Made by a program: the position numbers and the translations under genes. Below, piece after piece: positions 16,233 to 17,156 of a stretch of DNA of 33,358 bases. Position 1 is the stretch's first letter. Each line of letters opens with the position of its first letter. The DNA is taken from IMG/VR virus record IMGVR_UViG_2740892218_000011; one strand, 5' to 3'. The notes under the pieces are model-generated. The model was not told the DNA's origin, did not search any database, and worked only from the letters and a program-made list of their open reading frames with translations. Source of the stretch: a virus (lineage: Duplodnaviria > Heunggongvirae > Uroviricota > Caudoviricetes).

Positions 16233-16556
16233 GTGAGCACCATTCAAACAGGGATCACAGAGCAGGTTATTGCGTGGCTCTTTGACCACCTGCCAACGGT
16301 GTACGCAGCAGGCGCGGCGGTCAGCATTTCCGCGCTGATGAGCCTTTATGACGGACGAACGCTGGTTCAGACCGTAACGGGATCGCTGGCGTGCGGCGTT
16401 CTTGCCATGGCCGTGGCCGGGTCGTTGCGCTTCTTCGGAGTTCCTGAAGATGCCGTGACGTTTTTCGGCGCATCTATCGGTTTTATAGGCGCAGAAAAAG
16501 CACGCGACAAGATCATTGCCGCCTTTAACCGCATAACCCAAAAGGGAGATGAATAA
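16233..16556 (+). CDS. Putative holin
   Basis: GTG start right after the X stop; about 107 aa with three hydrophobic segments; holin position directly upstream of the endolysin. Confidence 0.55.
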   Translation: MSTIQTGITEQVIAWLFDHLPTVYAAGAAVSISALMSLYDGRTLVQTVTGSLACGVLAMAVAGSLRFFGVPEDAVTFFGASIGFIGAEKARDKIIAAFNRITQKGDE

Positions 16557-16610
16557 GTCTCAGGCTTAAAGCTGGTAATCACCATAAAAATCATTCACAG
16601 AGGTGGCGAA

Positions 16611-17156
16611 ATAAAATCGAAAGACGAAATTTTTGATGCCGTTCTGGGCAAAGAAGGCGGCTACGTCAATCACCCGGATGACAAAGGCGGCCCGACAAAA
16701 TGGGGCATCACTGAAAAGGTGGCACGGGCGCACGGATACCGTGGCGATATGCGTGATTTAACGCGCGGACAGGCACTGGAAATCCTTGAAGCTGATTACT
16801 GGTACGGACCGCGTTTTGATCAGATAGCGAAGCTGTCCCCGGATATTGCCGCAGAACTGTGTGACACCGGAGTAAATATGGGGCCGTCTGTGGCAACCAG
16901 AATGCTGCAGCGCTGGCTGAACGCATTCAATCAGGGCGGGAAACTGTATCCCGATATGGACACGGACGGACGCACTGGCCCACGCACGATTAACGCATTG
17001 CGTGCATATCTGGAAAAACGCGGTAGGGACGGCGAGATGGTGATGTTAGCAGCACTGAACTGTACACAGGGTGAACGCTATCTGGAGCTGGCGGAAAAAC
17101 GCGAAGCCAACGAGTCGTTTGTCTACGGCTGGATAAAGGAACGCGTGGCAGCATGA
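16611..17156 (+). CDS. Endolysin, GH108-type with peptidoglycan-binding domain; start codon uncertain
   Basis: Conserved N-terminus KDEIFDAVLGKEGGYVNHPDDKGGPTKWGIT is encoded upstream of the first canonical start (GTG 16719); frame is open from the holin TAA (16554-16556) with no ATG/GTG/TTG; SD AGGTGG precedes ATA at 16611. Confidence 0.7.
   Translation: MKSKDEIFDAVLGKEGGYVNHPDDKGGPTKWGITEKVARAHGYRGDMRDLTRGQALEILEADYWYGPRFDQIAKLSPDIAAELCDTGVNMGPSVATRMLQRWLNAFNQGGKLYPDMDTDGRTGPRTINALRAYLEKRGRDGEMVMLAALNCTQGERYLELAEKREANESFVYGWIKERVAA

Follow-up and report, generated by a model that had tools for sequence, protein, structure and literature searches.

An ATG-to-ATA start codon mutation in the GH108 endolysin gene of a P2-like Escherichia albertii prophage

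The prophage and its lysis cassette

The stretch of DNA analysed here, referred to throughout as the window (33,358 nucleotides), is a complete prophage of the P2 family (Peduoviridae; Xuanwuvirus / P88-like) inserted beside yecA, with its integrase gene on the minus strand at 1-1002. The window is 100% identical to BBVI01000008.1 (GCA_001514645.1) over every stretch compared. BBVI01 is the draft genome of Escherichia albertii NIAH_Bird_13 (Ooka et al. 2015, PMC4700944, supplementary Table S1), a phylogroup G2 strain obtained from a brown-eared bulbul in Japan in 2005 and sequenced on a MiSeq instrument at 70x with assembly by Platanus (PMC4700944). Against all complete E. coli genomes, the host flank (yecA, tyrP, ftnA, and araF) shows 87-88% identity, a level that fits the sister species E. 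albertii.

By tblastn, almost all proteins of Citrobacter phage Shae_phiSM (Peduoviridae, Xuanwuvirus) could be aligned over their full length in the window, including the portal, terminase, capsid, gpL, gpX, holin, GH108, LysB-like, tail, baseplate, gpD, and replication proteins. No further lesions were found among the other Shae_phiSM homologs in the window, all of which are full-length without internal stops. Apart from the endolysin start the prophage therefore looks intact, and the absence of other lesions argues against a decaying or defective element. The 931-aa form of repA is a shared variant rather than a private lesion.

The lysis genes lie on the plus strand of the late operon in the order gpX, holin, endolysin, LysB, LysC, as in P2-like genomes. 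Tail protein X (gpX, LysM-like; 16030..16230) has 91% full-length identity to its Shae_phiSM counterpart and matches Pfam Phage_tail_X. The holin gene (16233..16556) begins with GTG, ends with TAA at 16554-16556, and encodes 107 aa that match Pfam Phage_holin_3_1 (E=3.6e-19) and are 98% identical to the Shae_phiSM holin, with boundaries annotated alike in relatives. A 54-nt spacer (16557..16610), in frame, stop-free, and devoid of ATG, GTG, and TTG, separates it from the GH108 endolysin coding sequence (16611..17156; 181 codons, TGA at 17154-17156). The next gene encodes a LysB-like i-spanin of 135 aa (17153..17560) with a weak DUF2570 match and, from its translation, the N-terminal hydrophobic segment LWTSLGVAFLLIAAWGA. 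Its start codon ATG and the endolysin stop codon TGA overlap as ATGA, and LysB translation may be coupled to that of the endolysin. The LysC-like o-spanin (17421..17711; Pfam LysC in public gene tables) comprises 96 aa from ATG 17421 and has the lipobox LLTGC; in public calls the gene begins instead at ATA 17514, with loss of the signal peptide. A promoter and terminator scan returned nothing relevant.

The endolysin is a predicted GH108 muramidase. In a Pfam search with the conceptual 181-aa protein, Met replacing the first Ile, positions 2-85 of Glyco_hydro_108 (PF05838) matched residues 9-91 (E=1.1e-26, 93.6 bits against a gathering cut-off of 21.2), and PG_binding_3 (PF09374) matched residues 95-179 (E=4.8e-25, 88 bits against 24.6). 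The glutamate of the EGGY motif, Glu15 (codon 16653..16655), is present and aligns with Glu14 of TtsA, the named catalytic residue of that enzyme (PMC6996933). Sen1395 (PDB 6V3Z) and TtsA (PDB 6V40) are respectively 88% and 69% identical to the endolysin over about 178 residues; both are Salmonella GH108 muramidases with demonstrated activity (PMC6996933), and they share its two-domain layout, in which the catalytic domain with the EGGY glutamate comes first and a peptidoglycan-binding domain forms the C-terminus. TtsA has been co-opted to export toxin without lysis (type 10 secretion), whereas the window gene is part of a complete set of phage lysis genes, and we found nothing to suggest a secretion role for its product.

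The N-terminus of the endolysin (MKSKDEIFDAVLGKEGGY...) is charged and contains no membrane segment, which makes the protein a canonical cytoplasmic, holin-dependent enzyme. It fits the holin-endolysin model in lacking both a signal sequence and a signal-anchor-release (SAR) segment (PMC2680503). In the late operon of phage P2 (Y holin, K endolysin, lysA, lysB, lysC) the holin gene likewise comes after gpX and is followed by the endolysin and then the overlapping spanin genes, but the window differs in having a GH108 instead of a K type endolysin and in the absence of lysA, and P88-type relatives carry an M15 peptidase endolysin at the same slot. Domains and neighboring genes together describe an ordinary GH108 phage endolysin in an ordinary lysis cassette of the P2 type.

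An ATG-to-ATA mutation at the endolysin start

A preliminary description of this DNA had pointed out that the holin and endolysin share one reading frame with a single TAA between them, that upstream the endolysin frame meets no stop before the holin TAA at 16554-16556 and has GTG 16719 as its first ATG, GTG, or TTG, that the conserved GH108 N-terminus lies upstream of this GTG, and that a good Shine-Dalgarno sequence precedes an ATA codon at 16611. All of this is borne out by our analysis, with GTG 16719 opening a 145-aa ORF and the Pfam profile match identifying the upstream N-terminus as real coding sequence. The ATA codon (16611..16613) has AGAGGTGG (16599-16606) just upstream, and within it GAGGTG (16600..16605), read from the sequence and invariant among relatives, agrees with the anti-Shine-Dalgarno complement over six bases and lies 5 nt before the ATA. 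Base 16606 is G or A in relatives; each variant is found with ATG, which excludes this polymorphism as compensation for the altered start codon, and we rejected it as such. The near-cognate codons further upstream (CTG 16572, ATC 16578, ATA 16584, ATC 16590, and ATT 16593) were also rejected as starts, none having a Shine-Dalgarno sequence.

We compared the start with those of orthologous genes. ATG stands opposite ATA 16611 in 32 close relatives, comprising Shae_phiSM, E. coli ZH177 and RM9088, Salmonella enterica s1, 13 IMG/VR sequences, 4 metagenome contigs, and 11 NCBI/ENA contigs, the last encoding an identical endolysin protein. The annotated GH108 gene of Shae_phiSM has its ATG exactly at the position of the window's ATA, as do ZH177 and RM9088 (RefSeq product WP_000836744.1) at the equivalent of 16611. 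The Shae_phiSM gene (gh, WOZ57135.1) and that of WP_000836744.1 encode proteins with 98-99% identity to the window endolysin, occupy the same slot between holin and LysB, and have the same Shine-Dalgarno sequence and 54-nt spacer, differing in that they start with ATG. Across a broader set of 80 IMG/VR orthologs (87-100% protein identity), every one has a canonical start at residue 1, 79 being ATG (a count that includes two with Met one codon downstream) and one GTG. Taken over about 100 related contigs, a canonical start, nearly always ATG, occurs at exactly the 16611 position, and this places the beginning of the endolysin at 16611; no ortholog begins at the equivalent of GTG 16719. Searches with the ATA context gave no 100% match in the 38 complete E. 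coli genomes carrying the gene, with mismatch counts that fit ATG haplotypes, and pattern scans of genome, viral, and metagenome contigs in which the third start codon base was left free returned ATG copies only.

The closest relatives of the window identify the change itself. Contig L024 (GCA_041950205.1) differs from the window by a single base over 12,911 bp, and that base is 16613 (G versus A); L025 (GCA_048986835.1) differs at 16613 and by one intergenic indel; and in the IMG/VR ortholog L005 the endolysin gene is nucleotide-identical save for the codon 1 base. Given the canonical start in about 100 contigs and a sister differing only at 16613, ATA is a derived point mutation: a single G-to-A transition at 16613 turned the endolysin ATG into ATA. 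The point mutation entertained in the preliminary description was thus the right explanation.

The same codon recurs in other datasets. A 135-aa product called from ATG 16749 is carried by five contigs, and ATA is present at the true start in all four of those listed. Two are Logan assemblies of DDBJ read sets that were assembled independently: DRR017184, 100% identical to window 13749-19669 (5.9 kb), and DRR017183, 100% identical to window 16215-19341 (3.1 kb). The other two are metagenome contigs, ERZ27280688 with 14 other differences in 6.4 kb and ERZ28618005 (MUNK18-1, SAMEA104467354) with 5 other differences in 4.7 kb. Both of these metagenome contigs come from gut, and the ATA-bearing contigs besides the window are those we designate L127-L130. 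A look-up of public gene calls found no literal I-starting 181-aa product. In a haplotype table of 16215-19341 the ATA sequences group beside L024/L025 with 0-5 private differences, some of them clustered; the allele thus defines a small prophage lineage in circulation that arose once, on the L024/L025 haplotype.

The recurrence bears on whether the true base might be G, with the A a sequencing or assembly error in the draft genome, as the preliminary description had allowed. The source is a 2015 draft assembly, and ATA stood alone among the first 33 relatives compared, but the same A in the DRR017183 and DRR017184 assemblies and in two unrelated metagenome assemblies with private differences shows that it is neither a base-calling or assembly artefact nor a one-off. 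The 70x sequencing redundancy and the nature of the change, a substitution outside any homopolymer run at a site without a GATC or CCWGG motif, argue the same way. An error is therefore excluded as a practical matter, its residual probability being extremely small.

Translation of the mutated gene

Could the cell obtain an active enzyme without starting at the ATA? Programmed readthrough of the holin TAA would yield a holin-endolysin fusion supplying muramidase activity, and is prompted by the one frame and one TAA with 18 stop-free codons between the two genes. A shared frame of this kind has a chance probability of 1/3 x ~0.42 (18 stop-free codons), or about 0.14, and so is not beyond chance. 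Nor is the arrangement conserved: every close relative has a 54-nt spacer apart from L008, in which an extra base makes it 55 nt after a TAG stop and breaks the shared frame, and across the wider family (80 IMG/VR orthologs) the nearest upstream in-frame stop lies anywhere from 3 to 34 codons away. ATG-bearing relatives have an identical spacer yet need no fusion. The base after the holin TAA is G, a context in which E. coli terminates translation efficiently. Neither a leaky stop nor a stimulatory RNA element was found, since the spacer RNA, in its ATA and ATG versions alike, is no more structured than shuffled sequences (z=0.19) and Rfam, recoding motifs included, had no match anywhere in the window. 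The fusion raised in the preliminary description is accordingly unsupported, and we give it next to no credence. Internal starts are a further candidate, from which a shortened functional product might be made. GTG 16719 (16719..16721, codon 37) and ATG 16749 (16749..16751, Met47) are the first canonical starts in frame, the latter is chosen by automatic callers on ATA contigs, yielding the 135-aa call, and the PG_binding_3 domain would stay intact in either product. Initiation there would, however, remove residues 1-36 or 1-46, including Glu15 and positions 1-31 of the GH108 profile; both products lack the catalytic loop, and the one from GTG 16719 keeps only Glyco_hydro_108 positions 32-85. 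Neither codon has a usable Shine-Dalgarno sequence, AAAGG abutting GTG 16719 at zero spacing, no ortholog begins at 16719 or 16749, and public gene calls contain no gene for the 145-aa GTG 16719 product. To include Glu15, translation has to begin at 16611 or further upstream, and loss of this residue makes muramidase activity impossible for the internal products, although peptidoglycan binding could remain. A functional product from these starts is very unlikely, and any active enzyme must come from near-cognate initiation at AUA.

The reading we favor, and consider probable, is that ATA is a weak lysis allele, expressed through near-cognate AUA initiation and carried by a prophage lineage. 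In one E. coli reporter AUA, AUC, AUU, and CUG initiated at 1-2% of the AUG level, and in others at 0.02-3% (Hecht et al., bioRxiv 10.1101/063800). The ribosome-binding site of the window gene is untouched, so residual initiation is expected: the intact strong Shine-Dalgarno sequence (GAGGUG, 5-nt spacing) would still set the 30S subunit on the AUA, where the initiator tRNA would start at roughly 0.02-3% of the AUG rate. The product would be the normal full-length enzyme with Met first, in much reduced amount; taking the size of the defect from the E. coli reporter studies, we infer 30- to 5000-fold less endolysin. The rare ATA start proposed in the preliminary description holds to the extent that full-length enzyme must start at the AUA, but the codon is neither conserved nor ancestral, the orthologs in about 100 contigs having canonical starts.

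Attenuated lysis is a reasonable expectation from the ATA allele. In the general model it is the holin that determines when the membrane becomes permeable, after which the cytoplasmic endolysin breaks down the wall (PMC2680503). After induction of this prophage, the holin would still trigger and the cell would die, with wall breakdown and phage release slow or incomplete and virions trapped. The attenuation would not spare the induced cell, as the holin alone is lethal, and the overlap of the LysB start with the endolysin stop makes a polar effect on the spanin possible. Vertical inheritance of the prophage needs no lysis, so the allele can ride along with its host clone and may have persisted by such hitchhiking.

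A different account of the same AUA initiation is that the low-level start suffices or is even selected: endolysin would normally be in large excess, and the phage would either still form plaques and spread or gain from a weak enzyme. The allele is present in at least four further datasets on haplotypes differing at 2-14 other sites, and persistence on slightly different haplotypes is what would also be expected of a still infectious phage. The strong Shine-Dalgarno sequence is kept, and the endolysin ORF shows no secondary damage in any ATA contig. Of all single substitutions over the 12.9 kb compared with L024, a start codon is lost in 0.34% and a stop gained in 3.4%; start loss as the sole difference from L024 would thus be unlikely (~0.3%) for a random neutral substitution and hints at non-neutrality, although the site was singled out in hindsight. 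A few percent of wild-type lysozyme activity reportedly still permits plaques in the lysozyme studies of Rennell and Poteete; our literature search found no citable figure for the minimum endolysin level permitting plaques. On the other side, about 100 other orthologous contigs lack ATA, and the differences within the ATA group, some of them concentrated at 18383-18463 in what look like recombination patches, are too few to reveal purifying selection. The holin would kill an induced cell anyway and sets the timing of lysis, so lower endolysin has no obvious benefit. We regard a sufficient or selected AUA start as unlikely, and its fuller version, in which the endolysin from AUA is enough for a still-infectious lineage circulating among E. 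albertii in birds and livestock, or weak expression is itself selected, as a little less likely still; were AUA sufficient, the lineage would be a natural demonstration of at least a 30-fold excess of a canonical cytoplasmic endolysin.

Relation to known start codons and to gene calling

The infC and pcnB genes of E. coli start with AUU. The mutated endolysin gene resembles them in depending on AUN near-cognate initiation behind a good Shine-Dalgarno sequence with a predicted low output. The unusual codon of infC is conserved and autoregulatory, whereas that of the window is a derived allele found only in the window's lineage and absent from about 100 orthologs; without conservation of the codon, the gene falls outside the class of conserved regulatory non-AUG starts. 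The ATA of the weak lysis allele is a commonplace weakening mutation; it is not a device for programmed recoding, nor does it characterize the family. The event is of a familiar kind, a start codon mutation weakening a prophage lysis gene, and has little conceptual novelty.

The finding is relevant chiefly to gene annotation and to the scoring of prophages, and it involves no new mechanism. The prophage would score as intact though its lysis enzyme is probably strongly under-expressed. The natural ATA/ATG pair formed by the window and L024, otherwise identical over 12.9 kb, could be used to gauge the endolysin need of a P2-like phage. Gene callers restricted to ATG, GTG, and TTG shorten the gene to 135 aa from ATG 16749 (tables of ENA and Logan origin), and in a table of NCBI origin the gene is called at its full 181 aa from the ATA, so that the same gene appears as two products.

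Start codons and the endolysin slot in the lysis cassette

The LysC gene, coding for an Rz1-like o-spanin, is listed in public gene tables, including RefSeq for Escherichia coli ZH177, as starting at ATA 17514. The resulting call (17514–17711; counterpart at 2565–2762 in the compared contig L003) specifies 65 amino acids without a signal peptide. Reading from the in-frame ATG at 17421 (17421–17711) gives a protein of 96 amino acids with the N-terminus MNAPTLCLTLVLLTGCAG, in which a lipoprotein signal and lipobox are present. The ATA start of LysC at 17514 looks like an annotation artefact.

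At the holin stop codon, an out-of-frame ATG at 16550 begins a mini-ORF of six codons that overlaps the stop and terminates at TAA 16568–16570, with a Shine–Dalgarno-like AAGGGAGA in the same stretch (16541–16570). The mini-ORF is kept in close relatives, but as these are all >94% identical, the arrangement is probably due to chance.

Comparison of window positions 16557–17156 with P88-type phages shows a mosaic endolysin slot. The flanks match at 93–95% in P88, 520873, P884B11, and other Xuanwuvirus genomes, with a query coverage of only ~54%. The annotated endolysin of some P88-type Xuanwuvirus genomes is an M15 metallopeptidase, in contrast to the GH108 enzyme of the window.

Replication endonuclease and variable segments

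The replication endonuclease (5028–7823) is 931 amino acids long in the window, compared with 940 in the Citrobacter phage Shae_phiSM and many relatives, the difference being due to a frame change near the C-terminus (variant site around 7762). The shorter form is also found in two compared contigs, L038 and L046, which marks it as a natural variant and no private lesion.

In L046 (9820–13103) and in several E. coli prophages, the parB-like and portal genes are separated by an AAA ATPase and S8 peptidase pair, which is absent from the corresponding spot of the window (~9204–9278). On this comparison the interval is a spot of variable cargo, possibly a defence system. A resolvase-type DNA invertase gene (24183–24791; Pfam Resolvase/HTH_7) adjoins tail-fibre assembly genes that face opposite ways (22712–24163); this arrangement, at 22712–24791, fits an invertible host-range segment. 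The contig of the near-identical sister prophage, L024, ends within this stretch.

Prophage ends

A direct repeat of 136 nt is found on both sides of the prophage, at 33223–33358 of the window and at 11110–11245 of the compared contig L039, the copies being 97% identical (4 mismatches) and presumably representing attR and attL. The left one is found ~108 nt beyond the window edge, between int and yecA, and no tRNA gene is involved at the flanking repeat. In the Logan contig L046, the sequence past int is a 100% match over 125 nt to the right-end copy of the window. Close to the right end, downstream of ogr, is a small ORF (~32152–32292; 20937–21077 in the compared contig L023) with a weak Pfam HOK_GEF match, a candidate hok/gef-like toxin.
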